A stretch of 64,000 nt of DNA from an uncultured Bdellovibrionales bacterium (GTDB taxonomy: Bacteria; Patescibacteriota; Minisyncoccia; Moranbacterales; GWC2-37-73). The translations under genes were made by a program, and so were the position numbers. The stretch is from contig CAZCMV010000001.1 in the NCBI GenBank assembly GCA_964500125.1, positions 54,119 to 118,118 on the forward strand. The letters are read 5' to 3'. The notes beneath the pieces are model-generated. The model worked only from the letters and a program-made list of their open reading frames with translations, did not search any database and had not been told where the DNA came from. This document shows positions 1,338 through 22,000 of the stretch, in pieces; the stretch's first letter is position 1; each line of letters opens with the position of its first letter.

Positions 1338-1985
1338 TTAATTTTCTTCTTCTGGCAGAAAAGGCACATATTTCATATCACCCTCACTTCTCAATTTGTC
1401 ATAATGTCTCTTTTCTTGCCTTAAAAAATAATCAATTCTTTCCATAACTCTTTTTGAATCTTTTTCAGATTCTTCATTAAAACCATCAAGGGAATAACTA
1501 TGTGTATTTTCAGGATGAAGACAATGCAATAGTTCTTCTGTTATCCCAAGGATTTTTTCAACAGCTCCATATTTTATGGGGAATTTTTTTAATATATCGC
1601 CAGGATTCAACAAATGTTGTGCATTATAGTGTGAAAGTTGATGATGCCTTAAAACTGCAAGATTTTTCAATGTATCACCATTTTCAGCAATAATCTCTTC
1701 CGCTCTCGCCTTTCTTTTAATGTCTTTCTGATTAGCAATAAGAGAATAAACAGAAATAATTTTATCTTGCTCGCTATATTTTGAATTTTCAAAAATGTTT
1801 GCCAAAGCCTGAAGCCAAGTCTCTTCCAAGGAAAACATTGTGGCACCCCAAAAATTCTTATCCCTATCGAATTGCGGTTGATATGCTTTGTCTTGCAGAC
1901 CTTTCCAAACATAAAAGCAAAGGTGTGCCCTAGTTAAAAATTGGTATAATTTTTCGAATCTATTTTTATATTCTTTATTATCCAT
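1338..1985 (-). CDS. hypothetical protein, possible Abi/HEPN-like accessory protein (215 aa)
   Basis: Intact ORF directly downstream of the 422-aa HEPN-motif gene on the same strand; contains LRHHQLSH (R-x5-H-like); no confident family. Confidence 0.45.
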   Translation of the reverse strand: MDNKEYKNRFEKLYQFLTRAHLCFYVWKGLQDKAYQPQFDRDKNFWGATMFSLEETWLQALANIFENSKYSEQDKIISVYSLIANQKDIKRKARAEEIIAENGDTLKNLAVLRHHQLSHYNAQHLLNPGDILKKFPIKYGAVEKILGITEELLHCLHPENTHSYSLDGFNEESEKDSKRVMERIDYFLRQEKRHYDKLRSEGDMKYVPFLPEEEN

Positions 1986-4786: not shown

Positions 4787-5044
4787 ATTATTTATAGTAT
4801 GTTAATATATTTTGAAAACAAAAAAGGACAACCCTACTAGTTGTCGCACCCAAATAGACAGGTTATGCCTAATTGTTTTAAGTAAGGTTGCCCTATTCTG
4901 GGCACAACCTTACATTTTGCCTATCTGGCAAAATCCTATTTATTTGAATGCGACACCTAAAGAATACTGCATCGGGAGGCAAAAAGCAAACCTCGCATAG
5001 TTTGATTTTGAGCTAAATTTGGAGTAAATTAAAAGTATACAAAT

Positions 5045-6995: not shown

Positions 6996-8660
6996 ATGAC
7001 TACAAATAAAACACAGGAAATCAAGTATTTCCTTTATGCGAGAAAATCTTCAGAAAGCGAAGACCGCCAGGTGCAATCAATCGACGACCAGGTTGGCAGA
7101 TTGGAGCGGTTAGCCAAGGAGAGAAACTTTCACATTAAGCACATTTACAAGGAATCAAAATCAGCGAAGAAACCAAACAATCGTCCCCTTTTTGATGAAA
7201 TGATGAAAAGAATTGAAAGCGGAGAGGTGGACGGAATTTTATGCTGGCACCTCAATCGTCTTTCCAGGAATCCGATAGACAGCGGGAAAATAAGCTGGCT
7301 CTTGCAACAAGGAGTTATCAAGTCGATTCAAACGATGGAAAAAGAATTTAGACCCGAAGACAATGTTTTGCTTTTTAGCGTTGAAAGTGGAATGGCAAAT
7401 CAATTTTGCCGAGAATTAAGCGTGAATGTAAAACGAGGCAATCAAAAGAAGCGAGAGGACGGCTGGAGACCTGGAATTGCACCCACAGGTTATTTAAACG
7501 ACCTAGCAACCCACACGATGCCCATAGACCCGTTGCGATTCAGATTGCTTCGCAAAGCGTGGGATTTGATACTTACTGGAAATTACACCGTGCCACAAGT
7601 TGCCGACAAACTTAATAACGAATGGGGATTCCGAACGATAAAGAAAAAACGACTTGGAGACAAGCCATTGGCATTAAGCGGGATGTATAAAATTTTCACC
7701 AATATCTTTTATGCAGGAATAATTGAACACAATGGAGTTCACTATCCAGGAAAACATAAGGCGATGATTACCTTGGATGAATTTGACCGTGCACAAATCA
7801 TACTTGGACACAAAGGGAAACCCAGACCCAAAAAACATCACTTCCCTTTCACAGGATTATTCCGTTGCCCTGAATGCGGTTGTATGTATACCGCTGAATT
7901 GAAAAAAGGGAAATATGTTTATTATCATTGCACACACAAAAATAAAAAAGTTAAATGTTCACAAAGAAAAGTTCTGGAGGAGAAAAAGCTCTTAGAACAA
8001 CTTGAATACGAACTTGGAAAATATACCATACCCCAAGAACTGCTCGCTTTGGCATTGGAAATAATCGAAAGCAGAAAGGAGACCAAAGCAGACGATGAAA
8101 AAATAATAGCCGAGACTCGCCAGCAAACTTTAGAGAAATTGAAAAACCAACAATCAAATCTCATAAGAATGCGAAGCAACGATATGATTGATGATGAACA
8201 ATTCAAAGTCCAAAGCGAACCGATAAAAAAAGAGATTGAGAGATTAAGTAATGAGCCTATGAGTGCCAAAGACCGAAAAGAAAAAACCCTAGAGCTAACT
8301 GAAAAAACTTTTGCCTTTTATGCTTACGCCCACAAAGCGTTTCTGACTGGCAATGATGAAACACGAAGAGAGCTTATATTTCATTTAGGTTCGAACCACG
8401 AAATAAAAGACAGAATAACCTCCATACAAGCCAAAGAATGGTTTTTGCCCGTAGCAAATAAGCGCAATGATATAAAGCGAGAATTTGAAAGGTTAGAACC
8501 GATGAAAAGTGGCTGTATAAAAGCAAAAAGCGGGCAATTAAGCCCACTTCTTAGCACTATGCACGGGGCTATGGACACGACTAGGAACAATATTTTGGAA
8601 AACTGGGACAGGATTGATGTCAGATTACAGCGCGCTCAAGCCTTATTACAGCGAATTTAA
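6996..8660 (+). CDS. large serine recombinase (resolvase/invertase catalytic domain + recombinase domain + zinc ribbon), element 1
   Basis: N-terminus YARKSSESEDRQVQSIDDQ (catalytic Ser motif), CWHLNRLSRN, and C-terminal CxxC...HC zinc ribbon; 554 aa. Confidence 0.85.
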   Translation: MTTNKTQEIKYFLYARKSSESEDRQVQSIDDQVGRLERLAKERNFHIKHIYKESKSAKKPNNRPLFDEMMKRIESGEVDGILCWHLNRLSRNPIDSGKISWLLQQGVIKSIQTMEKEFRPEDNVLLFSVESGMANQFCRELSVNVKRGNQKKREDGWRPGIAPTGYLNDLATHTMPIDPLRFRLLRKAWDLILTGNYTVPQVADKLNNEWGFRTIKKKRLGDKPLALSGMYKIFTNIFYAGIIEHNGVHYPGKHKAMITLDEFDRAQIILGHKGKPRPKKHHFPFTGLFRCPECGCMYTAELKKGKYVYYHCTHKNKKVKCSQRKVLEEKKLLEQLEYELGKYTIPQELLALALEIIESRKETKADDEKIIAETRQQTLEKLKNQQSNLIRMRSNDMIDDEQFKVQSEPIKKEIERLSNEPMSAKDRKEKTLELTEKTFAFYAYAHKAFLTGNDETRRELIFHLGSNHEIKDRITSIQAKEWFLPVANKRNDIKREFERLEPMKSGCIKAKSGQLSPLLSTMHGAMDTTRNNILENWDRIDVRLQRAQALLQRI

Positions 8661-8814: not shown

Positions 8815-9327
8815 TTATAACTTTTCATGATTAGTTCCACCTTTTAAATCATTACTAATCGCCTGCGCTAATTCTAGAAAGTTTCCACCCACTTGAATAT
8901 GTTGTATGGGCAGACTTATTGCTGAATATAATTCATCCACGAATTGATCACGATTTTTTCGTCTTGGGTCATTGTGTGATTTTCCATCCAATTCAATGGC
9001 AAGCAATGGTTTTGTTGTGGCATGATTGCACACAAGAAAATCAACATGGCGCGATTTGATTTTGCCACGAAGACCCCAATGACCATTACTGGATATATTC
9101 TTCTTGTCCACATCTACAAAGTCCTCAATGCGCACCTTAGACAATACAATATAAGCGTCTCCCAGCGCCTTCTGCAGATTAATGAATAATGCTTGCTCTG
9201 ATTCATTCATCACCCTGTCCTTCTTCTGATATGAAGACAAGCTCGTCAGTCTTTCCTTCTTCTCAATGAATGCCTTAGCAAGAGCAACAGCGACAATGAA
9301 GACGATTAAGATAATTGTCCAAGTCAT
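8815..9327 (-). CDS. DUF2726-family (restriction-endonuclease-like fold) protein with N-terminal TM anchor (170 aa)
   Basis: RHVDFLVCNHATTKPLLAIELDGKSHNDPRRKNRD matches the DUF2726 core (VDF..., ELDG.SH); N-terminal hydrophobic helix. Confidence 0.55.
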   Translation of the reverse strand: MTWTIILIVFIVAVALAKAFIEKKERLTSLSSYQKKDRVMNESEQALFINLQKALGDAYIVLSKVRIEDFVDVDKKNISSNGHWGLRGKIKSRHVDFLVCNHATTKPLLAIELDGKSHNDPRRKNRDQFVDELYSAISLPIQHIQVGGNFLELAQAISNDLKGGTNHEKL

Positions 9328-9413: not shown

Positions 9414-10214
9414 TTACTTTCCAGAAACATTATTTTCATAAACAAATACTGCACCATTTTTTTCAACAACATCCTTAACACATCGCATCCTTTCAATGAA
9501 ATTATCATCTGATTCATTTAAACTTTTCTTACAATCGTCACTCCATTTTTCCAACAAAAGAAGCCCTGCATGATGTAAAATTTTTTCAAAATCATCCGAA
9601 GAAAGAATTTGCACTTTATTGTTAATTGCATTAGTAATCTTTTCACTTTCCTTGTCATACAATGGAACTAATCCAATTTTGTTAACAGAGAAGAAATGTG
9701 TCAGTGAATTCCTTAAATCACGCAGATTTTTTGCACTTATTTTTCCTGCTCTTTTTGGGTTCTCCATTATCCACTTATTCTCCCTGCATAGGCAAAATTC
9801 GTTTATAAATTGATCCATCGCACCATCCGAAGCATCTCTGAGTTCCGCACTATCGCTCGTTTTTTTCTGATATGCAGTATGAAGACAACGAAGTGTCTCA
9901 AGATGAGCGAAAAGTACAATAAACTCCGACCTAACAGGACGAGGGAAATGGAACTTATCGGCTAACGTTTCCGGATTTTCAGAGAGTGTAAAGTTTAAAT
10001 CGTCCGGCGGATTCATTTTTGACATAAGAGCCAATAGTTCTCTGCATTGTCTTTTTATATCTTTCAGTCTTTTCTTATAGCCCATTAACTCATTAACTTC
10101 TGCTTCAATCTGAATTAAAAAACGAAAGACAACCCCAAATTCTGGATGAATATCAATTCTGTTTTGAACCTTATCCATAATCACAAATGGCATATTTTCT
10201 ATATTCTTGTTCAT
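9414..10214 (-). CDS. HEPN-motif (RNxxxH) protein (266 aa)
   Basis: NLRDLRNSLTHF contains R-N-x3-H; 4-nt ATGA overlap with upstream gene (translational coupling). Confidence 0.45.
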   Translation of the reverse strand: MNKNIENMPFVIMDKVQNRIDIHPEFGVVFRFLIQIEAEVNELMGYKKRLKDIKRQCRELLALMSKMNPPDDLNFTLSENPETLADKFHFPRPVRSEFIVLFAHLETLRCLHTAYQKKTSDSAELRDASDGAMDQFINEFCLCRENKWIMENPKRAGKISAKNLRDLRNSLTHFFSVNKIGLVPLYDKESEKITNAINNKVQILSSDDFEKILHHAGLLLLEKWSDDCKKSLNESDDNFIERMRCVKDVVEKNGAVFVYENNVSGK

Positions 10215-10828
10215 ATTGAAAAAGTTGTATTTTCAATGGTATCACCGACAATAAGTGAAAAGCTTTTGGTGGATGACACACCATTTTGAGTATTTACAGT
10301 AATTGTTATCTTGTATTTTCCACGCTCAAGTTTATGACTAGGATTTTTCCAGTCATAAACATATGATTCATTATTCCAACCATATGCCTCCTTGTCTTTT
10401 TCGTATTTTGTAATCACATCTAAAAATTCCTGATTACCGGCTAAAATTGTGACAGGATCCGGTTCAAAAAGTCTCAAAATGGCGTTGTCCTTTAAAAATG
10501 GTAGCTCTGGCGTTGACGCCCAGCGCCCCTTGAACGAAAGGTGTGTTTTATTATCAACTCCAGAAATATTTATCATTGCCCTGCAATTTTCAGCAGTTTG
10601 ACGAACAAGCCATGTTAATAAAAATGGCATTCTCTGATTAACGACAGCAACTCTGAAAAATTTCCATCGTTGACCAGAATGAGAACTGCTATTTTGATAA
10701 GTATTATCAGAATGAGCTTCTTCTGTAACTAAAATTTCAATCGCAGGCATCCTCATCCGATCAAACCACAATGCAAGCAAAATTCCAAAAAAAGTTGTAG
10801 CGATCGATAAAATTATATTTTCAAGCAT
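10211..10828 (-). CDS. single-pass membrane protein of unknown function (205 aa)
   Basis: N-terminal TM helix; 2 nt after the MTase stop and overlapping the next gene start. Confidence 0.45.
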   Translation of the reverse strand: MLENIILSIATTFFGILLALWFDRMRMPAIEILVTEEAHSDNTYQNSSSHSGQRWKFFRVAVVNQRMPFLLTWLVRQTAENCRAMINISGVDNKTHLSFKGRWASTPELPFLKDNAILRLFEPDPVTILAGNQEFLDVITKYEKDKEAYGWNNESYVYDWKNPSHKLERGKYKITITVNTQNGVSSTKSFSLIVGDTIENTTFSI

Positions 10829-10830
10829 AT

Positions 10831-13800
10831 TTATTTAATGCAATTATTTACTACCTCAACCTCTTCCATTGTAAGTCCGTAAAATCCAAAGATGAGCTTA
10901 TCAATTTGTAATTCAAATTCTCTAATATCGGAGCCATCATTCTCCCTCTTAATATCTAAAATGCGCTCGACAATACTTATAACTTCTTCCTGTTCTTTTT
11001 TATTGCCAATAAAAATAGGTATTTCAATAATTGGATCCTTGTCAATTTGATAATTATTACCCTGCATCTTTCCTTTATTGTGAAGCCAAAAAGCAATTAG
11101 TTTAGAATTCAATATTCCAGTTAAATACTTTTGATTAATTCTACTTGTTTTTATAGAAAAAAATGCCCTAGAAACATAACAAGGAAAATCCGTGTAGGTA
11201 AATGTTGGACATGCACATTTTCTAACGGACATTATTTTTTCTCCTTGAAAAAAAGATTCTTTCCTTGGTCTATTTAAACCATAAGGTCCATTCTCAGATG
11301 TAATAATATCCTTAAATTTATCTAGATGCTTTTTTACCTCAGGATAATCATTGATTTTATCAGCTTTTTTAAATGATGAATCCGTATAGATGATCCAGAA
11401 CTTATTTTTTTTATTTCCAAAAATACCCTTTAATTCTTTTGTTGTATAATATGGTTTTAATAATTTATTTTCTTTTTCTGACAACTTAATGTTTTCTTTT
11501 TCATTATTTGAAAGAACAAATATACCATCTCCTATTTTAAAATTATTGCCAATTTCTTTTAAGGATTTTTTATTTACAAAATCCTGAAGAACATCAATTC
11601 CAGACATTAACTCACTTTTACCATCAATGAAAAACTTACCCTTTTCTGAAATCTTATTCAATATATTATTATCCTGAAGACTGCTAAAGACAAAGGTTTT
11701 ATTCTCGAAATAAGAACGATTGAAATTAGGATTAAGGTAGCAAAACTTATCATCCTTAACTTTATTTAATATTTTATTTACACAATTCAATGAAATTTTA
11801 TCATCAATTATTTTTCTATAATCAAATTGATACTCATTTAAACTATTATTTCGCTGAAGCAACATTATCATTGTTTGAATATCAGCACTTTCAAAAATTT
11901 TATAATTACCAAAATCAATAAAAGAAATCATTTTGGCATCTTTTGCGATCTTTAATCTAAGCTTAGAGGCCCCCGCATTTGTAACCCAATTATTAGAAGC
12001 AATAAAAGCAAGCACGCCAGTATTGGTCTTAAGTAAATCAATGAAAGTACAGGCAAAAAGATACCACAAATCCATTTTCCCTTGATAATACTGACTTTCA
12101 CGAAGTCCATCGAAAGCAGATTTATCTGTATGCTCTTTAATATAAGGTGGGTTCCCAATAACTACATCAAAACCACCCTTCTCTCTGAAAACGTCACTAA
12201 ACTCAAGCTTCCAAATAAAAAATGGACGGATATTCTTACGCCTAAGTTCTTTTATTTCCTCAAGCTTTTCCGTTTTACCCTGTTCTGCCAGTGTAATCTC
12301 AATCAGTTCCCACTTTAAATTATCAATCTCTTCTTTCAATTCTTGCTTATGTGTTCTTCGTGATTCACTTATGTATTGTTCAATTTTATTATGCAGAAGC
12401 TTAGTTTTCTCTTCTGCAATTCTCCTTTTTTCTGGAATTCCAAAAAGATTATTACTACTCGTATCAGAATTTTCAGATCCCTTGGAAAATAATTTAAGTC
12501 TTGATTGTAATGATTTTATTTCCCTCTCAATTTCCATCTTTCTAATTACTGTCAACTTGCCCTTATAATGCAGATCAAAATACTCCCGTTGAAATTTAGA
12601 AATTTCATCATTGACTTCTACTTTTTCTTTTTCTAAAGATTGCGCACTTTCAAGTATTGAATCATCAAATAATTTAATGCCTTCATATTCGGAAATAAGA
12701 CTATTACCTTGCATTATTTTATGCTCGAGATTTGGCAAGGGGTGCGGAATGTTTTCATCAACAACCAATGACAGCCAGAGGCGAAGCTTAGCGATTTCAA
12801 CCGCACCAGGATCAAGATCAACACCATAAATGGAATGGGAGATAGTGTGAAGTTTTAATTCATAATCAGAAATATTATCATCAAGATATATATTTAAGAC
12901 CTTTCTAGCTCTAACTATCTCATTAATCATGCCAAGCGGAAATGCGCCCGAACCAACAGCAGGATCAGCAATTTTTATATTTTCTAAGAGCTGATCTAAC
13001 AAAATTGCTTTTGATCTAATAGAGCCAGGCAGAAGTAATTCATATTTACCTCTATATTCAAAACCGCTAATTTCCTTTTCCCTTATCTTTTCTAGAGCAA
13101 CTTTGTCATTATCAATGATTCTATCTCCCCTACGTATAAGCAACTCTAAATCCTGCCTTGCAATATCAGTGCCGACTTCAGCTTCCAAATAGTTAATAAG
13201 ACTTTCTTGGCACATATAATGTACAATTTCACGAGGAGTGTAAAAAGCGCCCTTGCTTTTTCTATCTTTGATATCAAGCAAGTTTTCAAAAACTTTTCCA
13301 AGCATTTCAGGATCAACCGCAACCTCTTTTTCTAAAGGCTCATTTTCATTTACAGTAAAATTATATCTATCAAAAATATCAAAAATACCATCTCCGATAT
13401 CCCCTTCTTTGGTTCTATTATTATTAGAAAAAAGATCGTCAGGAAGAACAATGTTGGTGGTTTCCCATTTATATCCATTCATTGGTTCAAATAATCCACC
13501 ATTTAAAAATGGCATCCTGCAATTATTTAATCTAGGATAAATCGATTCCTTGCCACGATCTTGTGCAAGAGCTTCGTAAAATAATGGCTCCAAAACATCA
13601 TTAAAGAAATTTTTACCATATTTTTTTCGGCGTTCGAATAGTTCGCGTATGAATTTCTTAGGTCCCTCGCCCCATTTTTTTTCAGGCGAAACACCAAACC
13701 AGCCTTTTTTTTGTAAAAAATAAAGGAAGACAATTTGCCCTAAAGTTTTTTTTGCAAAATCAACCGTTGAAATTTCCTTTTCTTCAAATTCTTTTTTTAT

Positions 13801-14445
13801 CTTTTCATCATTAAGAAGAACAGCATCCAAACATTCCTTGAGATGAAAATATAACTCGGTATATTTACTAAAAAATTCTTTTGTTATTACTTCAATATCA
13901 AAAGCAAGTTCCAATTCTGAAAGATTTGGATTTTCATTACTTATAAGCAGATTCATAAATCTACTTTGTGCTGTATGACTACCTTCATTTTCACCAACCA
14001 AAAATGACCATCTCCGAGCAGGGGTTATTTCTGCCTTGGTTTTTAATTTTTCATTTACAACCTCCAAGGAATGTTCCAATTTTACAAGTGAAAGACGCCA
14101 ATCTCTATTTCCAGGAGAAACAAACGCTACCAAAGCTGCTTCCTTGTTATTTGTCTTAAGATACTCGGCTACAAAATTTCGTTGAGCTGTTCTAGCTCTC
14201 TCAAGAGTTGAATTTTTGTTAAGAGCAACTTCCAATATGTCTATTTTATTCCCAAAGCAATCCTCAAAATATCCAATTACCTTATATTTAAGAATAAATG
14301 GAAGAAATGAATGTTTTATGATCGGCTCAAAACCACTCGACTTATACTCCTTAAAAAGATTTCTAACGAAAAGTAGGAAGTTATTTTCATCAAACTTATC
14401 ATTAAACGCAGATGCAATAATTTTTTTTGCTTCTTCCTTTGTCAT
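10831..14445 (-). CDS. gamma-class N6-adenine DNA methyltransferase, Eco57I/PglX/DrmMI-like (1204 aa); possibly a Type IIG R-M fusion
   Basis: GAFYTPREIV (motif X), DPAVGSGAFPLG (SAM motif I), VVIGNPPYIKEH (NPPY motif IV); long C-terminal TRD-like region; ~170-aa N-terminal domain of unclear function. Confidence 0.85.
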   Translation of the reverse strand: MTKEEAKKIIASAFNDKFDENNFLLFVRNLFKEYKSSGFEPIIKHSFLPFILKYKVIGYFEDCFGNKIDILEVALNKNSTLERARTAQRNFVAEYLKTNNKEAALVAFVSPGNRDWRLSLVKLEHSLEVVNEKLKTKAEITPARRWSFLVGENEGSHTAQSRFMNLLISNENPNLSELELAFDIEVITKEFFSKYTELYFHLKECLDAVLLNDEKIKKEFEEKEISTVDFAKKTLGQIVFLYFLQKKGWFGVSPEKKWGEGPKKFIRELFERRKKYGKNFFNDVLEPLFYEALAQDRGKESIYPRLNNCRMPFLNGGLFEPMNGYKWETTNIVLPDDLFSNNNRTKEGDIGDGIFDIFDRYNFTVNENEPLEKEVAVDPEMLGKVFENLLDIKDRKSKGAFYTPREIVHYMCQESLINYLEAEVGTDIARQDLELLIRRGDRIIDNDKVALEKIREKEISGFEYRGKYELLLPGSIRSKAILLDQLLENIKIADPAVGSGAFPLGMINEIVRARKVLNIYLDDNISDYELKLHTISHSIYGVDLDPGAVEIAKLRLWLSLVVDENIPHPLPNLEHKIMQGNSLISEYEGIKLFDDSILESAQSLEKEKVEVNDEISKFQREYFDLHYKGKLTVIRKMEIEREIKSLQSRLKLFSKGSENSDTSSNNLFGIPEKRRIAEEKTKLLHNKIEQYISESRRTHKQELKEEIDNLKWELIEITLAEQGKTEKLEEIKELRRKNIRPFFIWKLEFSDVFREKGGFDVVIGNPPYIKEHTDKSAFDGLRESQYYQGKMDLWYLFACTFIDLLKTNTGVLAFIASNNWVTNAGASKLRLKIAKDAKMISFIDFGNYKIFESADIQTMIMLLQRNNSLNEYQFDYRKIIDDKISLNCVNKILNKVKDDKFCYLNPNFNRSYFENKTFVFSSLQDNNILNKISEKGKFFIDGKSELMSGIDVLQDFVNKKSLKEIGNNFKIGDGIFVLSNNEKENIKLSEKENKLLKPYYTTKELKGIFGNKKNKFWIIYTDSSFKKADKINDYPEVKKHLDKFKDIITSENGPYGLNRPRKESFFQGEKIMSVRKCACPTFTYTDFPCYVSRAFFSIKTSRINQKYLTGILNSKLIAFWLHNKGKMQGNNYQIDKDPIIEIPIFIGNKKEQEEVISIVERILDIKRENDGSDIREFELQIDKLIFGFYGLTMEEVEVVNNCIK

Positions 14446-14447
14446 AT

Positions 14448-17400
14448 CTAGTTGATATTAAAATATTCAGAAAGTATAATCTCCTTTTTTGCAGATACAC
14501 CATCATTTTGCTCGTTTTGATTTGGCATCAAGAAATCAGCAGGAAGAGTGGTTTTTAAGATTGCCAGAAGTTTAATTGGGTTCGCAATAATTTCTGGCAT
14601 TTCCTGAATTTTATTATAAATTGTTTGAGATATTTTCTTTGGAATTCCACCAGTGTTAAGCTCCTCAATAACTTGTCTAATATAAGATTCATCATCCTCT
14701 GTAAAGCCCTTAAAATTTCTAATTTCTTTTGCGCTCAAAAGCTTGTGAAGACGTGCGGCATTATCCCTACTTCCACGCTTAGATGAAAATTCTTCCTCCT
14801 CATTCTCGCCAACATTTTTCAACATTTCCAAATTCTTATCAAGCAATTCATAGAATAGTTTATCTTGTTTGTTTTTTTTCTCATCTGGCTGAGCCGATAG
14901 TGTTTTTGCCGCTTCCGTAAAATCAATCTCGGAAGAAACTGAGACTGCACCATTTTCCACAATGAAAAACTTTTGTAATTTTCCTTTTCTGAAATATGTT
15001 AGTAATTTAACAATACTATCTTTTGATTCACGAACTGTTCTTGCCTTCTTTGGAAGTCTTTTTATTTTTTCAAATAATTCAGGATTTTCATCCCTTATCC
15101 TTCTGATCTCTTGCAAATACCCAAGCTCACTTTCTCCCTCATCCATCTCACCCTCAATCATTTCTTTTGATAAGATTTGACTGAAAAGGCTGTGCCCTTC
15201 TGGGACTTCACTTTCAGTTAGAAGTTTTGCGTCAGCACCAAGCAATGTGATGAATGCTTGAATTTTAGCTTCTGCCATTTCTTTTAATTTAATCTGCTCA
15301 TTTGATTGGTCTGTTGGAAAAAAAGTATATGTATAAATTTTGTCATGTTTTGCATCGACTCTGTTTATGCGACCGACTCGTTGCATTATACGTGTAGGAT
15401 TCCATGGAATATCATAATTTATAACGACATTCGCCTGATGTAAATTAGCACCTTCAGACAAAACATCTGTTGTTATCAGAAGCGTGAAATCATTCTTAAT
15501 ATTTTTTGCATTTGCATCAAAATTCTCCATCACTATTTCTCGTTCCGCCTGTGAACTCTCTCCTGAAAAATACAGGATTTTATCTGGAAAAATATCTTGC
15601 AAATTCTTCACCAAATATTGTGCTGTTTCTTTTGATTCGGTAAATATTATAGACTTTCCAATTTTTACAGGCTCCTCAATGGCAAGCTTTTCCTTAAATG
15701 CTATGATTTTAGGATCGCGATCGATACCTTTCCATAATTCCTGAATATCTTTCAGGATATTCAAATCATTATTAAGATCAACAATAAAGTTTTCATTAAA
15801 TTCATCACTAGAAAATTTCTCCGCTTTGCCATTCGCAATAAGCTGATCAATAGCATCCAAATTATCGTTCTCTAAATAATCAAATATTTTTTGAATATTT
15901 TTTTTGCTCACATATACATTGCCAGAATTGAACTCATTTATAAATTTTTCATATGACGCAACAAAGCGATTTATCGATTGACTAAATGCAAAAAAACTAC
16001 TTTCTAATCTTTTAATCAAAAGCATTCTCATGAATTTCATCATGTTCTTTTGTTGTTGCTCCTCTGAACTCAAAAGCCCCTTATGATAAAGTAACGGCGT
16101 ATAGCGAGAATACTTGAAATCATTGGTTATAATCTTAATTGTCTCAAAAAAAACATTGTCTTCTTTTTCATTGAATTCATAAAAAATCGGCTCTGGATTG
16201 GCAATTTCAGGAAAACTCATTTTTTGTTTTTTCAAATCATCTCCGTAATATTTTGTGATTTCCGTTCTGGTGCGTCTAACCATTAAATATTTCAATACGC
16301 GCTCTCTAATCAATTTAGAGTTTTCTTTTGTAATGGAAATATATTCTTGTTTATCTTTTTGCCTGTCGAGCCCTTTAAGTTTTTTCTCTAAATTCTTAAA
16401 AAACCCCTCAAGATCAGGAAGACTTGGAATTGTACTTTTTCTTGAGCGCTGAAAAAGTTTAATCTGTGCTAACAAATCAGATGGCGAATTATTATATGGT
16501 GTAGCTGTCACCAAGATAACTTTTTTGCCCCTGCAAATCTGCGCAAGCTTTGCATAGGTATCAGTTTCCTCTGTTCTGAATCGATGCGCTTCATCAATAA
16601 GAACAACATCAAAATCCTTCTGCAAGTCCTTTTTTATTATCTTATCCAAAATCCCAATCGACATGCATTTGTAATCTTTTGCTCGAAATCCAAAATTGCG
16701 AAAAGCGTTTTCCCAGCTTCCCTCATTGCTCTCGCTAATCAAGTGTGGTGGCGCCAAAACCAATGTCCTGCCCTTTAACTCCTGACAAAGCATTGTGCCC
16801 ATGAAGGTTTTACCAAGACCCACAACATCCGAAAGAAAAACACCACCATATTCCTCCACAATTTTTCGAGCGTTAATAACAGCATGATCCTGATATTTTA
16901 ACTCCTTAAAATTGTGCGGACGGAAATTGTGCTCCAATGATTGGCTCTCATTAATCTCTTCCTTAAAATATTCATACAGAAATTTTAGATAGAGCTCGTA
17001 TGGAGTGATATCTTCGCGAAGCCATGTATCTTTTTTTATCGTTTCTAGATATTTTTCACTCACATCAACTCCTTTTTCCCATAACTCTTCAAATTTAGAC
17101 TTGGCAAATTCATAATCAGAAGGATTCTTAAGCTCAACATTAAATTCCAAATTATCCACCAAGCCACTTTGTGTAAAATTGCTTGAGCCAGTAATAACAC
17201 GACCAAGATCCCGATCATCTTCATCGAATGTCATTATGTACAATTTGGAATGAATCTTTTCTTCAGGATAAGCTCGGATTTCTAATTTATCACTAGACAG
17301 CCATTCAATAAATTTCAACACCCCTTCTTCTACTTTTACATTGTTTTCACAATCTTCCATTTCTTTTTTTACCTCCTCACCAATCTGTTCTCCTATTTCC

Positions 17401-17687
17401 TTGTGTGATTGAATTTTTTGAAGCAAATCATAAGTCTGATGATTAGTGCTAATTCCAATCAGAATTCTTATTTTTTCAGTTTTTTCCAAACTAGGATAAA
17501 TAGCATAAAAACCGCTTGTATAAAAATAACCAACCAAGACATCAAAAAAACGTGTGTCTTTAATTAAAACTCTGAAACGATCAGCAAGATTATTGTTTTT
17601 TTCATTGGTTAAAAATGTAAGATCTGTATTCATGTTTTTATTGAAAATAGAAAAATTATAAATCAGTCCATTTAAATTCAAAGGCAA
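14448..17687 (-). CDS. PLD(HKD)-family nuclease fused to SNF2-family helicase (1079 aa)
   Basis: N-terminal PLD: YFYTSGFY..., HSKLYIMTFD (HxKx4D), GSSNFTQSG. Helicase: GLGKT (motif I), VLIDEAHRFR (DEAH), C-terminal QRVGRINR (motif VI). Confidence 0.85.
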   Translation of the reverse strand: MPLNLNGLIYNFSIFNKNMNTDLTFLTNEKNNNLADRFRVLIKDTRFFDVLVGYFYTSGFYAIYPSLEKTEKIRILIGISTNHQTYDLLQKIQSHKEIGEQIGEEVKKEMEDCENNVKVEEGVLKFIEWLSSDKLEIRAYPEEKIHSKLYIMTFDEDDRDLGRVITGSSNFTQSGLVDNLEFNVELKNPSDYEFAKSKFEELWEKGVDVSEKYLETIKKDTWLREDITPYELYLKFLYEYFKEEINESQSLEHNFRPHNFKELKYQDHAVINARKIVEEYGGVFLSDVVGLGKTFMGTMLCQELKGRTLVLAPPHLISESNEGSWENAFRNFGFRAKDYKCMSIGILDKIIKKDLQKDFDVVLIDEAHRFRTEETDTYAKLAQICRGKKVILVTATPYNNSPSDLLAQIKLFQRSRKSTIPSLPDLEGFFKNLEKKLKGLDRQKDKQEYISITKENSKLIRERVLKYLMVRRTRTEITKYYGDDLKKQKMSFPEIANPEPIFYEFNEKEDNVFFETIKIITNDFKYSRYTPLLYHKGLLSSEEQQQKNMMKFMRMLLIKRLESSFFAFSQSINRFVASYEKFINEFNSGNVYVSKKNIQKIFDYLENDNLDAIDQLIANGKAEKFSSDEFNENFIVDLNNDLNILKDIQELWKGIDRDPKIIAFKEKLAIEEPVKIGKSIIFTESKETAQYLVKNLQDIFPDKILYFSGESSQAEREIVMENFDANAKNIKNDFTLLITTDVLSEGANLHQANVVINYDIPWNPTRIMQRVGRINRVDAKHDKIYTYTFFPTDQSNEQIKLKEMAEAKIQAFITLLGADAKLLTESEVPEGHSLFSQILSKEMIEGEMDEGESELGYLQEIRRIRDENPELFEKIKRLPKKARTVRESKDSIVKLLTYFRKGKLQKFFIVENGAVSVSSEIDFTEAAKTLSAQPDEKKNKQDKLFYELLDKNLEMLKNVGENEEEEFSSKRGSRDNAARLHKLLSAKEIRNFKGFTEDDESYIRQVIEELNTGGIPKKISQTIYNKIQEMPEIIANPIKLLAILKTTLPADFLMPNQNEQNDGVSAKKEIILSEYFNIN

Positions 17688-17814
17688 TGCCTATTGATTA
17701 AGGCAAATTTTGGCTTTGTTTCAAGTTTTTCCGTGCTTTAATGGTATCACTAAGTCAGCATTTATTCAAGCTATTTGACAAGAATCGCCACTTGTATATT
17801 ATTGAGGTAAGAAA

Positions 17815-18028
17815 AAGGTTACCCTGCACCGGACTCGAACTAGGAATTCGGAAAAGTCTATGGCAGGGAGTGTTTCCTCGGAGCAAGAGAAAAAAGAATT
17901 GCTCCTGTAATGCGCAGATTGCCAATGCTGCCGGGACACTTTAAGGCACAGTCAAGATCCCTCTTTATGATGTGGTTTTGTATGTGCTCAGATTCTTTTT
18001 CAAGAACCGCATCATATGCGGTTTTTTT
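17815..18028 (+). ncRNA. candidate small RNA ending in an intrinsic terminator; contains a tRNA T-arm-like fragment
   Basis: GC-enriched, non-coding; ggactcgaac (T-loop-like) at 17828-17840; hairpin ggagcaa-N12-ttgctcc at 17878-17905; terminator aaccgcatcatatgcggttttttt at 18005-18028. This orientation would be divergent from the defence operon promoter. Confidence 0.25.
18005..18028 (+). terminator. rho-independent terminator
   Basis: 8-bp GC-containing stem aaccgcat/atgcggtt, 3-nt loop, followed by T7. Confidence 0.5.
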
Positions 18029-18055
18029 GTCGTGAAAAATAAAAATCAAACAAAA

Positions 18056-18232
18056 ATGCAATCCCAATTCAGCCCAGCATTAATAGCCAAGTGCCAAAAA
18101 GTGATCTTCCAGAAATCAGGCAAAAAAATCAGCAAAGCGAAAGCCGAGCTGTATCTGGAAAAATTCGCGCGATATTTCATGCTGGCCGTGAAAGTTTTGG
18201 ATCAAGAAGCAAAAACTAAAAAATTAAAATAA
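18056..18232 (+). CDS. small hypothetical protein (58 aa)
   Basis: ATG at 18056 in frame with listed ORF; lysine-rich C-terminus. Confidence 0.3.
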   Translation: MQSQFSPALIAKCQKVIFQKSGKKISKAKAELYLEKFARYFMLAVKVLDQEAKTKKLK

Positions 18233-18239
18233 AAATCCA

Positions 18240-18515
18240 ATGGCAAAAATCATTAAAATTGACGAAATATCCCAAATTAAACTCCTTTCTGGCAATATAA
18301 TGCTTCAGCATTTGAAAAAATCTAAAACTGGACGAATAGCGTGGGTTACAGACGGCAATTTTTCCACATGGGCATCAACGTGTGAGTTCTACATTTTTCA
18401 GGCACCATACCGCACCATTGAAGGCACAGCGCAAATTGAGAGACTAATCGAAGTCGTGATAAGGTCGACCGACCAGATCAGTCAGGTTTTAATAGATAAC
18501 AATTTAAACAATTAA
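18240..18515 (+). CDS. small hypothetical protein (91 aa)
   Basis: ORF immediately following previous small ORF; same strand. Confidence 0.35.
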   Translation: MAKIIKIDEISQIKLLSGNIMLQHLKKSKTGRIAWVTDGNFSTWASTCEFYIFQAPYRTIEGTAQIERLIEVVIRSTDQISQVLIDNNLNN

Positions 18516-18527
18516 TAACAAAACAGT

Positions 18528-18710
18528 ATGACTGATGAAAAAGCTGAAAAATTCCCTGATGGAATCTGTCCGTTCATGAGCACACCGGAAAATCCGGTAC
18601 CATGTAGCGGAATATGCCAACTTCACAGAAAAGGCAAAAAAGGTTTTGCCTGTCCATGGCATGATCTTGCCATTATTGCCTGGAATTTGAAACCCGAAAA
18701 CAGACGCTAA
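18528..18710 (+). CDS. small cysteine-rich (zinc-ribbon-like) protein (60 aa)
   Basis: CPF...PCSGICQLH...CPWH gives 5 Cys/2 His spaced like a zinc-binding knuckle. Confidence 0.35.
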   Translation: MTDEKAEKFPDGICPFMSTPENPVPCSGICQLHRKGKKGFACPWHDLAIIAWNLKPENRR

Positions 18711-18720
18711 AGCGTGACGG

Positions 18721-18970
18721 TTTCGAAAAAGAAAGGCGCCCCAAAGAAAAACACTATATATACAAAATGCATCCATGTTCAAGAATTGAACTTTCGAAAA
18801 GAAACGATGTACATATAACCATATATTATATATACATTATGTTCCCATGTTCAAGAATTGAACCTTCGATGAGAAAAGATGTATATATAAACATTCAATA
18901 TATATAAATAGCCACCCCATATATATTTTTTGTTTTTTTCCATGTAAGGGCGCCGAACTTTTTCGAAGGT
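18721..18970. repeat. AT-rich cassette: two ~70-bp direct repeats, each with a TTCAAGAATTGAA palindrome, flanked by ~20-bp imperfect inverted repeats (GGCGCC...CTTTTTCGAA)
   Basis: Direct repeats at 18771-18844 and 18845-18910; left flank tttcgaaaaagaaaggcgcc (18721-18740) and right flank gggcgccgaactttttcgaa (18948-18968) are reverse complements with 3 mismatches. Confidence 0.5.
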
Positions 18971-19099
18971 TTAAAAAAAACGGAATTCATTAAAAGATTT
19001 AAAAGAAAAATAAAAATGCATCTGAAATCTGACAAAATCGCGCGATAAGTGCTACAAGCTAGACAGGATTTGTTTTATGGCTCAAAGAAGCCATTATTC

Positions 19100-19900
19100 A
19101 AACACTAACTGGTGAGCCTGATTAAGAGAGCAATTTTCCGCCAGCCCGCACCCGCAACGAACCGCAGACTTCAGCAAATTCACAAAACCAAACAGAGGCG
19201 CAGTTGAGCATTTTGAGAGTTGCTGTCACGCATTCCAAAAAGAAATTTTCTGAGCAGGTGCCTTGTTTTTCTCTTGGCGACCACGGGAGCACAAGAGCAA
19301 AAAACAAGAGCATCAGCGGAGGGAAATTTCGTCGTGACAGCAACGGTCAAGAAAAAGGAGCGGAAAGATTGTGCTTGGAGGACGATTAAGTCCGACAAGC
19401 TTTCATTATCCGCGACCACCTTTGACACGATTGAGAAGCGAACCACCAGCGTTGATTGCAATGAGAGGGAGAGCGAACGACCGTCCCTGCAGAGCGACCA
19501 CTTCTTTTGAAGTCGTTGCAGTCTCAAGCCCCTCAAGACTGAGGGGTTGGGGGTGTTGAAAGTCCAAGCGAGAAAAGAAAAGAGTGTCTGACAATGCTGC
19601 ATTCTTGCGACATTCCAAGCTGTCAAAAATGACGCCGAGGGAACGCAGAAGGAAATTTTTGAAACAGCTTGTGCCAATGTCGCAAAATGTCACATTGTCA
19701 GAGGGTGAGAAACACCTTCCTTCAGAATGTTAAATCGTCAAAGTGTTTCTCAATCCCCTTGCACCTTTTCTTTTCAACTCCTTGAGGGATTGGAGTTTGA
19801 GGAAAACCGCAGTGGTTTTCTCTCATTTTTAAAGAGTTTTTTCAAAATCTATAAAAATAGTGCGGTGAGAAACATTTTTCTATTCGAAAAGAATTGAAAC
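19100..19900. other. GC-rich (~50%) non-coding island; candidate large structured RNA or decayed foreign DNA
   Basis: No convincing ORF on any frame (overlapping low-complexity ORFs on both strands); perfect hairpins e.g. cccctca-agac-tgagggg (19531-19548); long-range complement tgcgacatt (19606)/aatgtcgca (19677); motif ggtgagaaaca twice (19705, 19867). Confidence 0.3.
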
Positions 19901-19935
19901 TTGCCTGTCTGATTTTTCCGGTAATCCGGAAAATA

Positions 19936-20337
19936 TCAGTCTGGCAAGTTCTCCTCTGTGTATTTATATTTTCGAATAGAAAAATGTTTCTGACCGCTTT
20001 CCTTAATGATTGATTTTGAAAAGACCTCCGCTTTGTATTTAAAGAGTTTGGCGAGAATTAAGACTGCTTTTTCGGAAAAATCTTTGCCGAGCCAACTCCC
20101 TATTTGGAGCCGTAGAAGCACGGAAAGTATCACTAGAAATAAATAAAATACTATGATATTATTGATGTGGACACAACTAAAATACTCATCGAAGACAGAA
20201 AGGGCAACCTTTGCTGCAATCTTCGATGAGAAGTTGTGTCCAAAGCGGGGTTGTCCTTTTTGTTTTGCAAAAAATATGAATCTTCTGGACACAATTTCTT
20301 TATCAAATAGCGGAATGGCCAGCGCAGGCGAGCTCAT
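19936..20337 (-). CDS. hypothetical membrane-associated protein (133 aa)
   Basis: ORF divergent from recombinase 2; one hydrophobic helix. Confidence 0.3.
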   Translation of the reverse strand: MSSPALAIPLFDKEIVSRRFIFFAKQKGQPRFGHNFSSKIAAKVALSVFDEYFSCVHINNIIVFYLFLVILSVLLRLQIGSWLGKDFSEKAVLILAKLFKYKAEVFSKSIIKESGQKHFSIRKYKYTEENLPD

Positions 20338-20399
20338 CTTGTTTTTCGGTGTGATCGCACTAATGATTTTTGACGAAATAATTTCTAAAAATAAATAAT

Positions 20400-21989
20400 A
20401 TGAAATACGTCATTTATGCCCGAAAATCAACCGAGAGCGAAGACCGCCAAGCGCTCTCAATTCAATCTCAAATCTTTGAGATGAAAGAAGTCGCCAAGCG
20501 CGAACATCTTAAAATTGTTGAGGTTCTGGAAGAATCCAAATCCGCCAAACAACCCGGCCGACCGATTTTCAATGATATGATTAAGAAATTCAAAAGCGGA
20601 AAATATGAAGGAATTCTCTGTTGGAAAATAGACCGACTCGCCAGAAATTCACTCGACGCAGGAATGGTGCAATGGCTTTTGGAAAAAGGAACAATCAAGC
20701 AAATAAAAACCTTTGAGCGCGATTATAATCCAAGCGACAACGTCGTGATGGCCAGCATTGAGTTTTCAATGGCCAACCAATATGTCCGCGACCTTTCCAA
20801 GAATGTGAAGCGTGGACAGGCGGAAAAGATTCGTCGTGGCGAATATCCTGCCACTCCCCCAGTCGGATATCTCATCGATTATAAAACCAAGAAAATATAC
20901 ATCGACGAAGATAAATGGCATCACATCAAAAAAGCTTTCCAGCTTTATGCGACTGGAAATTATTCAATTCCAAAACTGGCCGAGAAACTTTCAAAGGAAG
21001 GTTTTCGCTCACGCAATGGCCGACCAGTCCACGGATCCGGAATATACCAAGTTCTCAATAATCCTATTTATTACGGATGGTTTCGTTGGAATGACCAAAT
21101 CTATAAAGGAATTCATGCTCCGATGATTTCCAAGGATTTGTTTGATGCGGTGCAAGAAGTTTTTCATCCAAGAAAGCACACAGTTGAACGCAACGTTCAC
21201 AATTTTGTTTTTCGTGGGCACTTGGTTTGTGGAGAATGTGGATTGAAAATAACTGCAGAAACTCAAAAAGGTCATGTGTATTATCACTGCACAAAATCAA
21301 AAGGCGTGGACAAATGTTCACAGAAATATTTGCGCGAGGAAGATTTGATCACAGAAATCGACAGCCGTTTGGCAAAACTAAAAATTGACGAGGATGTGCT
21401 CGACCTTATGATTGAAGCATCAAGAGAATTGAGCAAGCATGAATGGAACGACATCCGCGAAATAGAAAAGAAACATCAAGCACTTCTGGACAATAATAAA
21501 TTCAGACAGGACTCACTCATTGAAAAGTACATCAGCAATGTCATTCCGGATGAGCACTACAATCGCAAATTGGCAGAGCTTCGCAATGAAGAAGCGGACA
21601 TCGAAGACAATCTGCGAAGCACCAAGGAGAATTTTCACAATGTTTTTGAGAAGATTGAATTGGCTGCGAGATTCGCCAAATTTGCCAAAAAGATCTTTGG
21701 GCGTGGCGATTTAGAAATCAAAAAAGAAGTTGTGGCAATCCTGACTTCGAACATTATCATAAAAGACAAGCAAATAAAGGAATTTCGCCTCGCTGAGCCA
21801 TTCGCCAGCGTGATGAAAGATGTTGAAATCACAAAGGGAAAAGGCAACGGAAAATCCAGTATCGAACTTGGCAGTTTTGCTTTATCTAAAACTAAAACAG
21901 CCCCCAAAAGGGAGGCTGTTTCACTTATGCACGGGGTGAGGGAATCGAACCCCCGCCAAAAGTTTTGGAGACTCTCGTTCTGCCACTAA
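20400..21989 (+). CDS. large serine recombinase, element 2 (paralogue of 6996-8660)
   Basis: YARKSTESEDRQALSIQSQ catalytic motif, CWKIDRLARN, zinc ribbon CGECG...HC; about 45-50% identical to recombinase 1 over the N-terminal 170 aa; 3' end reads through the tRNA-Trp 3' half (…HGVRESNPRQ…). Confidence 0.85.
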   Translation: MKYVIYARKSTESEDRQALSIQSQIFEMKEVAKREHLKIVEVLEESKSAKQPGRPIFNDMIKKFKSGKYEGILCWKIDRLARNSLDAGMVQWLLEKGTIKQIKTFERDYNPSDNVVMASIEFSMANQYVRDLSKNVKRGQAEKIRRGEYPATPPVGYLIDYKTKKIYIDEDKWHHIKKAFQLYATGNYSIPKLAEKLSKEGFRSRNGRPVHGSGIYQVLNNPIYYGWFRWNDQIYKGIHAPMISKDLFDAVQEVFHPRKHTVERNVHNFVFRGHLVCGECGLKITAETQKGHVYYHCTKSKGVDKCSQKYLREEDLITEIDSRLAKLKIDEDVLDLMIEASRELSKHEWNDIREIEKKHQALLDNNKFRQDSLIEKYISNVIPDEHYNRKLAELRNEEADIEDNLRSTKENFHNVFEKIELAARFAKFAKKIFGRGDLEIKKEVVAILTSNIIIKDKQIKEFRLAEPFASVMKDVEITKGKGNGKSSIELGSFALSKTKTAPKREAVSLMHGVRESNPRQKFWRLSFCH

Positions 21990-22000
21990 ACTAACCCCGC
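21930..22000 (-). tRNA. tRNA-Trp(CCA)
   Basis: Reverse complement folds as cloverleaf: acceptor GCGGGGT/ACCCCGT (G1-U72), anticodon stem AGAGT/ACTTT with loop CUCCAAA, T-arm GGGGG-TTCGATT-CCCTC, discriminator G. Confidence 0.75.

Follow-up and report, generated by a model that had tools for sequence, protein, structure and literature searches.

Why is a phospholipase D (PLD)-type nuclease joined to a Swi2/Snf2 (SNF2) helicase in one polypeptide, and what does such a protein work with? The question is raised by a gene at 14448..17687 in a 64,000-nucleotide (nt) stretch of contig CAZCMV010000001.1, from an uncultured bacterium, which was analysed as a whole and is referred to here as the window. 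Our analysis indicates that the PLD-SNF2 gene is the first half of a self-contained two-gene module with the adjoining DNA methylase gene, and that the pair is probably a restriction-modification (R-M)-like defence module. Feature coordinates are collected in Table 1.

The PLD-SNF2 fusion protein

The interval 14448..17687 is a single open reading frame (ORF) on the minus strand, the plus-strand translation being riddled with stops. The longest frame opens with TTG and encodes 1079 amino acids (aa). The true start, however, is probably the ATG at 17633 (MNTDLTF...), giving a protein of 1061 aa, because homologues begin at the matching residue and have the same length; the 1061-aa version is identical to a database protein (P0001), and its length is common to more than 100 homologues. 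Residue numbers below follow the 1061-aa protein, unless the 1079-aa ORF translation is named. A frame of more than 1000 codons in DNA of about 34% GC, with domain E-values down to 5e-22, is far beyond chance. No enrichment over shuffled sequences was obtained in promoter and terminator scans.

Pfam matches above the curated cut-offs were found for PLDc_2 (40.6 bits, cut-off 27), RE_NgoFVII (25.2 bits, cut-off 23.8), ResIII, SNF2-rel_dom (29.8 bits, cut-off 24.9) and Helicase_C (78.7 bits), placing the protein in both the PLD/HKD superfamily and the Swi2/Snf2 group of superfamily 2 (SF2). There is one HxK...GSxN signature in the whole protein (H128-S-K130, G149-S-S-N152), and the motif scan found the SNF2 set complete (GLGKT, DEAH, TATP and QRVGRINR). 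The C-terminal 200-250 aa matched no Pfam family, and a sequence search of the PDB with the full protein returned generic helicase C-lobes only.

Could the fusion be an artefact, that is, a frameshift or assembly error that joined a PLD gene to a helicase gene? A word-indexed search with the protein gave 7883 proteins at E<=1e-10, and nearly all of the best 120 clusters were about 1060 aa long, with 61-83% identity and a colinear alignment that covers 100% of the query. An exhaustive search of 50%-identity cluster representatives gave 17259 matches at E<=1e-3, of which 1514 were at E<=1e-30. Among the best 150 distant representatives, 117 were 1000-1160 aa long, with the alignment starting at about residue 1-30 and thus including the PLD domain. 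In these 117 divergent representatives the catalytic positions are almost invariant: H128 is kept in 97%, K130 in 99%, GSSN in 98-100%, GLGKT in 92-99%, D347, E348 and H350 of the DEAH motif in 99%, 98% and 98%, and the Q, R, G, R and R of motif VI in 98%, 100%, 97%, 100% and 100%, respectively. The C-terminal portion of about 225 aa was the least conserved in the same comparison. Moreover, the linker between the two halves (aa 204-223) is rich in residues that are invariant among 51 closer homologues, and an independent Logan assembly of SRR8925823 encodes a 100% identical protein. Judged by these sequence comparisons, PLD-SNF2 is a genuine, intact single-polypeptide fusion; because of the hundreds of colinear homologues, the conserved linker and the identical protein in an independent assembly, an artefact has next to no probability and is excluded for practical purposes.

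An AlphaFold2 model built with 51 homologues (mean predicted local distance difference test score, pLDDT, 78.6; predicted template modelling score, pTM, 0.67) comprises an N-terminal alpha/beta PLD domain, two RecA-like lobes split by a long helical insertion, a low-confidence loop at aa ~791-832, and a C-terminal beta-sheet with a helical bundle. When the model was compared with the PDB by Foldseek, RapA came first (E 1e-15), followed by Chd1, CSB, ISWI, SMARCAD1, Mot1 and ZorD (top set E 1e-15 to 1e-12), with the PLD-helicase restriction enzyme SauUSI (7clg_B) at rank 7 (E 1.2e-13). Since Swi2/Snf2 proteins lead this list, the predicted fold identifies the motor as a genuine Swi2/Snf2-type ATPase.

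The original prediction for this DNA, a PLD nuclease fused to an SNF2 helicase in one 1079-aa polypeptide with a single HKD copy, agrees with these results apart from two corrections, of strand and of start. Pfam, the fold search and the catalytic motifs of the 117 representatives bear out the fusion; the motifs it quoted (HSKLYIMTFD, GSSNFTQSG, GLGKT, DEAH and QRVGRINR) all lie in one continuous ORF, and there is indeed one HKD signature. It was right that the interval holds one ORF, which is now placed on the minus strand with a probable length of 1061 aa. Two possible causes of failure had been named: a frameshift joining two genes finds no support, given the colinear homologues and the identical protein of the Logan assembly, and the N-terminal region does match a PLD profile, PLDc_2 being above its curated cut-off.

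The adjoining methylase and the function of the pair

The gene that begins 2 nt past the PLD-SNF2 stop, on the same strand, encodes a large DNA methyltransferase with the Pfam domains Eco57I (E 2e-33), N6_Mtase, TaqI_C and MmeI_Mtase. Its NPPY motif follows motif I, the gamma-class order. By sequence it belongs with Type IIG proteins, its best PADLOC match being REase_MTase_IIG PDLC03596, a REBASE-derived Type IIG model (E 2.9e-206, 686 bits). When the methylase homologues of 62 loci were compared, aa 1-600 and the NPPY region aligned in about 100% of them and the region past aa 880 in only about half. On this alignment, the core is conserved and the recognition domain variable, as is typical of R-M systems, in which DNA specificities are swapped.

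The pairing is conserved. We examined 99 loci with a full-length PLD-SNF2 homologue, taken from genomes, metagenomes, plasmids and IMG/VR contigs; 87 of them have at least 600 nt of downstream sequence and are informative. A methylase homologue starts within 1.5 kb downstream on the same strand in 83 of these 87 loci, and in about 68 loci it abuts the PLD-SNF2 stop, the gap being mostly 0-10 nt. Clustering of all other flanking ORFs gave no third gene family in more than 8 of the 99 loci, the commonest being a serine recombinase; the absence of a recurring third family means that the module is self-contained, and the PLD-SNF2 gene is its first half. Hosts of the pair include Ca. Vogelbacteria, Ca. 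Woesebacteria, Clostridia, Lachnospiraceae, Bacteroides, Parabacteroides, Fusobacteriaceae, Gammaproteobacteria, Ca. Chrysopegis and Tissierella, and the informative loci cover, among others, Patescibacteria, Kryptonia and IMG/VR contigs classed as viral. The spread across phyla is patchy, with identity of up to 77-80%, which suggests horizontal transfer.

Some individual loci deserve mention. Twelve copies of PLD-SNF2, of full or nearly full length, come from IMG/VR contigs classed as viral (L103-L113, L115). In several of these (e.g. L104, L105 and L111) about 300 nt separate the module from a phage lysozyme-like gene and from further shared ORFs of phage-like type; phages or prophages may thus carry it. 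On a 1.9-Mb genome contig (locus L002, 1917..5691 and 16680..20773) OLD-family ATPase/TOPRIM and UvrD-helicase genes, a Gabija-like domain combination, precede a homologous pair (70% and 58% identity) by about 4 kb; an ArdA anti-restriction gene is the immediate neighbour of the pair, and a relaxase follows after about another 3 kb. Because of these neighbours, the L002 pair is placed in a defence island on a mobile element.

The N-terminal region of the methylase (aa 1-471) is well conserved as well, the invariant residues in 43 homologues being R85, R89, W116, S119, T141, R145, S147, E154, H157 and T158. No conserved D...(D/E)xK triad is found among these, nor is there any invariant Lys in aa 1-170 of the same homologues. 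Residues 1-241 match no Pfam family even at E<=10, a model of the N-terminus (pLDDT 77) has no Foldseek match in the PDB at E<=1e-3, solved Type IIG enzymes included, and a profile search of the PDB with the N-terminus gave nothing below E 0.1. Since no canonical nuclease signature or known nuclease family was found in the methylase N-terminus, the PLD domain is the only recognizable nuclease of the pair. In four Clostridia-type loci (L007, L010, L011 and L017) the first ~250 aa of the methylase homologue are split off by about 190-220 nt; there, the N-terminal domain may be a separate gene or carry an insertion.

What is observed, then, is which domains are present, that the catalytic residues and the gene pairing are conserved, that the recognition domain varies, and that the context is one of islands and mobile elements. 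From these we infer that PLD-SNF2 dimerizes and translocates, that it forms a physical complex with the methylase and that unmethylated DNA is restricted. The pair is probably a self-contained, ATP-dependent R-M-like defence module made of two genes, with PLD-SNF2 as its nuclease-motor ('Res-like') subunit. The methylase, by means of its variable recognition domain, would recognize a short site and methylate the copies of it in host DNA. PLD-SNF2 would act as a homodimer in which two single-HKD domains build one metal-independent phosphodiesterase site, and its SNF2 ATPase would couple site recognition to cleavage through ATP-driven movement along, or remodelling of, double-stranded DNA. Cleavage would be licensed only on unmethylated (foreign) DNA recognized by the methylase. 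Dimerization, which the original prediction also expected, is reasonable by analogy, since SauUSI and the MtsD protein of the MANTIS system, both of which have the same single-HKD and SF2 layout, are dimers, and the MtsD dimer forms one PLD site; Nuc and BfiI are further precedents. The proposal as a whole is favoured by the pairing in 83 of 87 loci, the 2-nt gap between co-directional genes, the intact domains and the conservation of catalytic residues at 92-100%. It is also in keeping with the Swi2/Snf2-like fold and its SauUSI match, the missing third gene family, the variable recognition domain, the PLD as sole recognizable nuclease, the low-GC island with AbiU2, DUF2726, HEPN-like and serine recombinase genes, and the precedents of MtsD, SauUSI and L. 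lactis pLd8.

Several points weigh against this proposal. The alpha/beta domain at the methylase N-terminus has a predicted beta-beta-beta-alpha-beta order, compatible with a degenerate restriction-endonuclease fold, and PADLOC places the methylase in its Type IIG 'restriction enzyme-methyltransferase' models; the predicted fold may thus hide a cryptic second nuclease. A literature search turned up no experimental study of the stand-alone pair subfamily, be it of restriction, of methylation or of a complex between methylase and nuclease. Furthermore, MANTIS requires two further proteins and its MtsD could not be reconstituted in vitro (bioRxiv 10.64898/2026.09.23.753747), so that a simple two-component mechanism is not guaranteed. 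A further step, which we take tentatively and hold to be slightly the less probable outcome, is that the stand-alone pair represents a distinct, biochemically uncharacterized class of ATP-dependent R-M systems, a minimal counterpart of MANTIS and Type ISP enzymes. In such a class, it would fall to the orphan N-terminal domain of the methylase, in place of further ATPases or adaptors, to recruit and license the dimeric SNF2-driven PLD nuclease, and the class would be widespread, including in Patescibacteria and on viral-classed contigs.

Four other functional readings were weighed against this one. The methylase could be an autonomous Type IIG enzyme (MmeI/Cj0031-like) with its own N-terminal nuclease, PLD-SNF2 being an accessory or back-up effector. 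This would fit the PADLOC match and the strongly conserved N-terminal domain with its restriction-endonuclease-like strand and helix order, as well as a weak hint of the MmeI helical spacer in the Pfam scan and the solitary Cj0031-like enzymes that are listed besides the PLD+SNF-paired ones by Milman et al. 2023 (PMC9881135). We nevertheless consider it unlikely, given the lack of a catalytic triad, of a nuclease family and of a structural match described above; the authors of the study on the Lactococcus lactis plasmid pLd8 likewise saw no restriction domain in the equivalent methylase (PMC6098607), and the near-obligate pairing points to a core rather than an optional role of PLD-SNF2. It is also conceivable that PLD-SNF2 attacks modified DNA as a Type IV enzyme of the SauUSI kind, independently of the adjoining methylase, the two proteins sharing the N-terminal PLD and SF2 motor layout and a structural match. 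An abutting methylase, at mostly 0-10 nt in nearly all informative loci, is however the signature of a modification-protected and not of a modification-dependent system, and the C-terminal region, which is without a Pfam family, holds no detectable SRA-like or other known modification reader, making this reading very unlikely.

A non-defence role, as a RapA-like remodeller in transcription or repair or as an epigenetic regulator, would agree with the RapA chains at the top of the structural matches and with the frequent involvement of SNF2 proteins in transcription or repair. It is marginally more improbable still, in view of the conserved HKD nuclease residues, the variable recognition domain of the methylase, the patchy cross-phylum spread at high identity and the occurrence of the module on plasmids, on viral-classed contigs and in islands beside recombinases and other defence genes. 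The remaining reading, to which we give the least credence of the four, is that of a Class 1 DISARM system, compacted or surviving as a remnant, with DrmC (PLD) and DrmD (SNF2) fused into one. The domain content is like that of DrmC, DrmD and DrmMI together, which has been remarked for pLd8 too (PMC6098607); the C-terminal helicase lobe partially matches the DrmD models, and the methylase partially matches DrmMI. The scores, though, are far below the cut-offs (DrmD NF038317, 132.5 bits vs 610; DrmD NF038318, 81.6 vs 950; DrmC, 15.7 vs 133), the methylase scores 686 bits with the Type IIG model vs 107 with DrmMI, and no third gene recurs in the 99 loci. Pfam and PADLOC scans of the flanking ORFs (120 aa or longer, on either side of the pair) and of the three other ORFs of more than 800 aa in the window detected neither DrmA, DrmB nor DUF1998.

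The two-gene R-M-like module thus stays the preferred interpretation. Under it, the PLD-SNF2 gene is one member of a restriction-like family of gene pairs that is very large (1514 clusters at 50% identity, E<=1e-30) and horizontally mobile; the window copy is an ordinary defence-island cargo gene. For annotation, the two genes are best called together, and the label 'Type IIG restriction enzyme' is probably misleading for the methylase, because the recognizable nuclease sits in the neighbouring gene. For enzymology, the pair would offer a minimal two-protein system in which to study how a methylase-borne recognition domain controls an SNF2-driven, metal-independent PLD nuclease.

The island and its other genes

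The stretch with the module has a GC content of about 0.26-0.36 vs 0.37-0.41 beyond 22 kb, and it ends at a cluster of transfer RNA (tRNA) genes (Trp, Thr, Tyr, Thr); the lower GC to the left of this cluster suggests an integrated island. The module is bracketed by two large serine recombinases with 36% mutual identity, homologues of which are found near the PLD-SNF2 module in about 8-10 other loci. No convincing pair of att-type direct repeats was found around the island.

Besides the defence-type cargo listed in Table 1 and a helix-turn-helix (HTH) protein gene, the island contains two small genes, orf205 and orf266, downstream of the methylase. In orf266, the motif LRxLRNSLTHFF and the R168-x4-H173 arrangement, a HEPN-type RNase signature, are invariant among 21 homologues. 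In locus L121 the two genes are again together (73-74% identity), with a Type I R-M system upstream of them, and orf266 homologues lie in other defence islands, beside reverse transcriptase, PDDEXK and HNH genes (L122 and L123). From these sequence features, the orf205-orf266 cassette may be an uncharacterized HEPN-type abortive-infection module. Neither orf205, orf266 nor the DUF2726 gene recurs next to PLD-SNF2 elsewhere, and they are taken as separate cargo and not as parts of the module.

Several repeats were also noted. An inverted repeat (4787..4834 / 20248..20295) with a near-perfect core of about 20 nt, AAAACAAAAA(A)GGACAACCC, has its arms 15.4 kb apart; they enclose the HTH gene, the first recombinase, the DUF2726 gene, the HEPN-like cassette, the methylase and the PLD-SNF2 gene, and may be the ends of an element or sites of recombination. 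Two tandem 72-nt copies, 81% identical and each with the internal palindrome TTCAAGAATTGAA, lie at 18755..18898 in gene-poor DNA upstream of PLD-SNF2, and there is a hairpin at 19862..19997 (29 nt, 97% complementary). Elsewhere in the window, an 822-aa type IV secretion coupling protein of the TrwB/TraG type is encoded at 43585..46053 on the minus strand, flanked by ORFs of about 820 aa at 39958..42414 and 47039..49489, neither of which matches a Pfam family.

Table 1. Features annotated in the window, with positions, strand and the basis of each assignment
Feature	Position	Strand	Basis or remark
PLD(HKD)-SNF2 gene, 1061 aa (probable start)	14448..17633	-	Start and length common to homologues; longest-frame ORF reaches TTG 17687
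PLD/HKD nuclease domain, N-terminal, aa ~8-205, one HKD copy	17019..17612	-	Pfam PLDc_2 E 2.7e-10, RE_NgoFVII E 1.1e-5
HKD motif HSKLYIMTFD, aa 128-137 (H128, K130)	17223..17252	-	Motif scan
GSSNFTQSG, aa 149-157, GSxN half of the PLD signature	17163..17189	-	Motif scan
Swi2/Snf2-type ATPase core, aa ~246-800: RecA lobe 1, helical insertion, RecA lobe 2	15234..16898	-	Pfam ResIII, SNF2-rel_dom, Helicase_C; AlphaFold2 model; Foldseek
Motif I / Walker A GLGKT, aa 272-276	16806..16820	-	Motif scan
Motif II DEAH, aa 347-350	16584..16595	-	Motif scan
Motif VI QRVGRINR, aa 751-758	15360..15383	-	Motif scan
C-terminal region, aa ~836-1061: small beta-sheet, then helical bundle	14451..15128	-	Least conserved part; AlphaFold2 model
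Eco57I-family gamma-class N6-adenine DNA methyltransferase, 1204 aa	10831..14445	-	Pfam, PADLOC, motifs
Methylase N-terminal region, aa 1-471: conserved alpha/beta domain and helical spacer	13033..14445	-	Homologue alignment, model
Methylase motif FYTPREIV	13222..13245	-	Motif scan
Methylase motif DPAVGSGAF	12940..12966	-	Motif scan
Methylase motif NPPY	12142..12153	-	Motif scan
Methylase target-recognition region, aa ~880-1204, variable between homologues	10834..11808	-	TaqI_C match; likeness to CamA/BseCI
orf205, N-terminal transmembrane helix (membrane-anchored)	10211..10828	-	Starts 2 nt after methylase stop; no Pfam family
orf266	9414..10214	-	Overlaps orf205 by 4 nt; no Pfam family
DUF2726 protein	8815..9327	-	Pfam; defence-type cargo
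Large serine recombinase	6996..8660	+	Pfam
AbiU2 (HEPN) protein	1338..1985	-	Pfam; defence-type cargo
Large serine recombinase	20400..21989	+	Pfam; overlaps 3' end of tRNA-Trp
tRNA-Trp	21929..22000	-	Edge of tRNA cluster

Comparison with known systems

Neither the architecture nor the gene pair is new: both are in catalogues, are widespread and have been read in print as they are here. The best of 35 PADLOC matches of the PLD-SNF2 protein is PDLC01075 ('C3a139, HKD+Snf2'; E 4.6e-51), a model without a curated cut-off, in which aa 29-902 of the 1079-aa ORF translation (aa 11-884 of the 1061-aa protein) align with profile positions 7-829 of 948; the model goes back to cluster 139 in Shah et al. 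2018 (PMC6546367). A table in Milman et al. 2023 (PMC9881135) lists a Cj0031-like 'Type II R-M' gene with, immediately upstream, a gene containing phospholipase D (cd09178) and SNF (cd18793) domains. The same gene pair is orf33/orf34 of L. lactis pLd8, for which the PLD was inferred to supply the restriction activity (PMC6098607); the pLd8 protein is absent from the plasmid matches at E<=1e-40 and so belongs to a more distant branch. All three records share with the window gene a single-HKD N-terminal PLD domain, an SNF2 ATPase and Helicase_C, and the Milman and pLd8 records also share the large Type IIG-like N6-adenine methylase immediately adjacent; they are at the level of catalogue or annotation, none being biochemically characterized. 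The novelty implied by the original prediction therefore does not stand, as PLD/HKD-SNF2 fusions are known from PADLOC, Shah 2018, pLd8, Milman 2023, MtsD and PbeA. Nor does its DISARM frame, with a DrmD score of 132.5 bits and neither DrmA, DrmB nor DUF1998 among the ORFs scanned.

MANTIS (equivalent to Gao_RL, a Type-2 BREX-related system) uses a fusion of an HKD endoDNase with a Swi2/Snf2 helicase, which was reported in 921 taxa (PMC12839542); in its cryo-electron microscopy structure, MtsD is dimeric, has one PLD site and resembles SauUSI (bioRxiv 10.64898/2026.09.23.753747). Like the window gene, MtsD has its HKD/PLD nuclease N-terminal to a Swi2/Snf2-type ATPase, and it partners an N6-adenine methylase bearing a recognition domain, as the window pair does. 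MtsD is a dimer and MANTIS restricts unmethylated DNA, as is proposed here for the window pair. MANTIS requires, however, MtsA (a DUF499 AAA+ ATPase) and MtsB (DUF3780 in PMC12839542, DUF3870 in the MANTIS preprint). Neither MtsA nor MtsB of either DUF assignment was found among the scanned neighbours of the pair in the window, and neither recurs in the 99 loci. With these signature partners absent and a score of 137.8 bits vs a cut-off of 1100 for NCBIfam NF042964 ('phospholipase D-like domain-containing anti-phage protein'), which we assume to be the MtsD model, the pair is not assigned to MANTIS.

SauUSI (Type IV, PDB 7CLG), which is dimeric and ATP-dependent, has the same N-terminal PLD nuclease and SF2 motor, but differs in having its own C-terminal reader of methylated cytosine and no cognate methylase, and in attacking modified DNA. 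Membership in its type was rejected, the window protein lacking a Pfam family in its C-terminal 200-250 aa and having a methylase downstream in 83 of 87 loci. Class 1 DISARM resembles the pair in its domain types (PLD, SNF2 and Eco57I-like methylase), with weak profile similarity, but has DrmA and DrmB and a separate PLD gene, DrmC, whereas PLD and SNF2 are fused in the window; on the DrmD and DrmC scores given above the pair was not assigned to it. PbeA, of the PbeABCD / CxC-ABC systems, is an HKD endoDNase fused to an SF2 helicase and serves as their restriction component, but these systems are built around an ABC ATPase and DndE, neither of which is encoded here. BREX was likewise rejected (BREX-1 PglX, 94.6 bits vs a cut-off of 500; no PglZ or BrxC among the neighbours), as were Dpd and Zorya, which were below the curated cut-offs or without signature partners.

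In Type III R-M systems, by definition, the Res subunit carries its PD-(D/E)xK nuclease at the C-terminus and the Mod methylase is of the beta-class. The pair is not assigned to Type III, its nuclease being an N-terminal PLD and its methylase of the gamma-class (Eco57I/N6_Mtase). It nonetheless shares with Type III (EcoP15I) and Type ISP (LlaGI/LlaBIII) enzymes the combination of a methylase bearing a recognition domain with an SF2 ATPase-nuclease fusion, for which ATP-dependent communication along DNA is characteristic. It differs from both in having a metal-independent PLD instead of a PD-(D/E)xK/Mrr nuclease, a Swi2/Snf2-like motor and an Eco57I gamma-class methylase. Furthermore, it consists of two genes, whereas Type ISP enzymes are single polypeptides, and its nuclease is N-terminal, whereas that of Type III Res is C-terminal. 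The concatenated order of the pair (nuclease, motor, methylase, recognition domain) mirrors that of Type ISP enzymes, which is in part described in PMC2790908. By analogy, then, the pair would in function resemble a Type ISP enzyme divided over two genes, or else the Mod and Res subunits of Type III, with PLD replacing PD-(D/E)xK and a Snf2-type motor.

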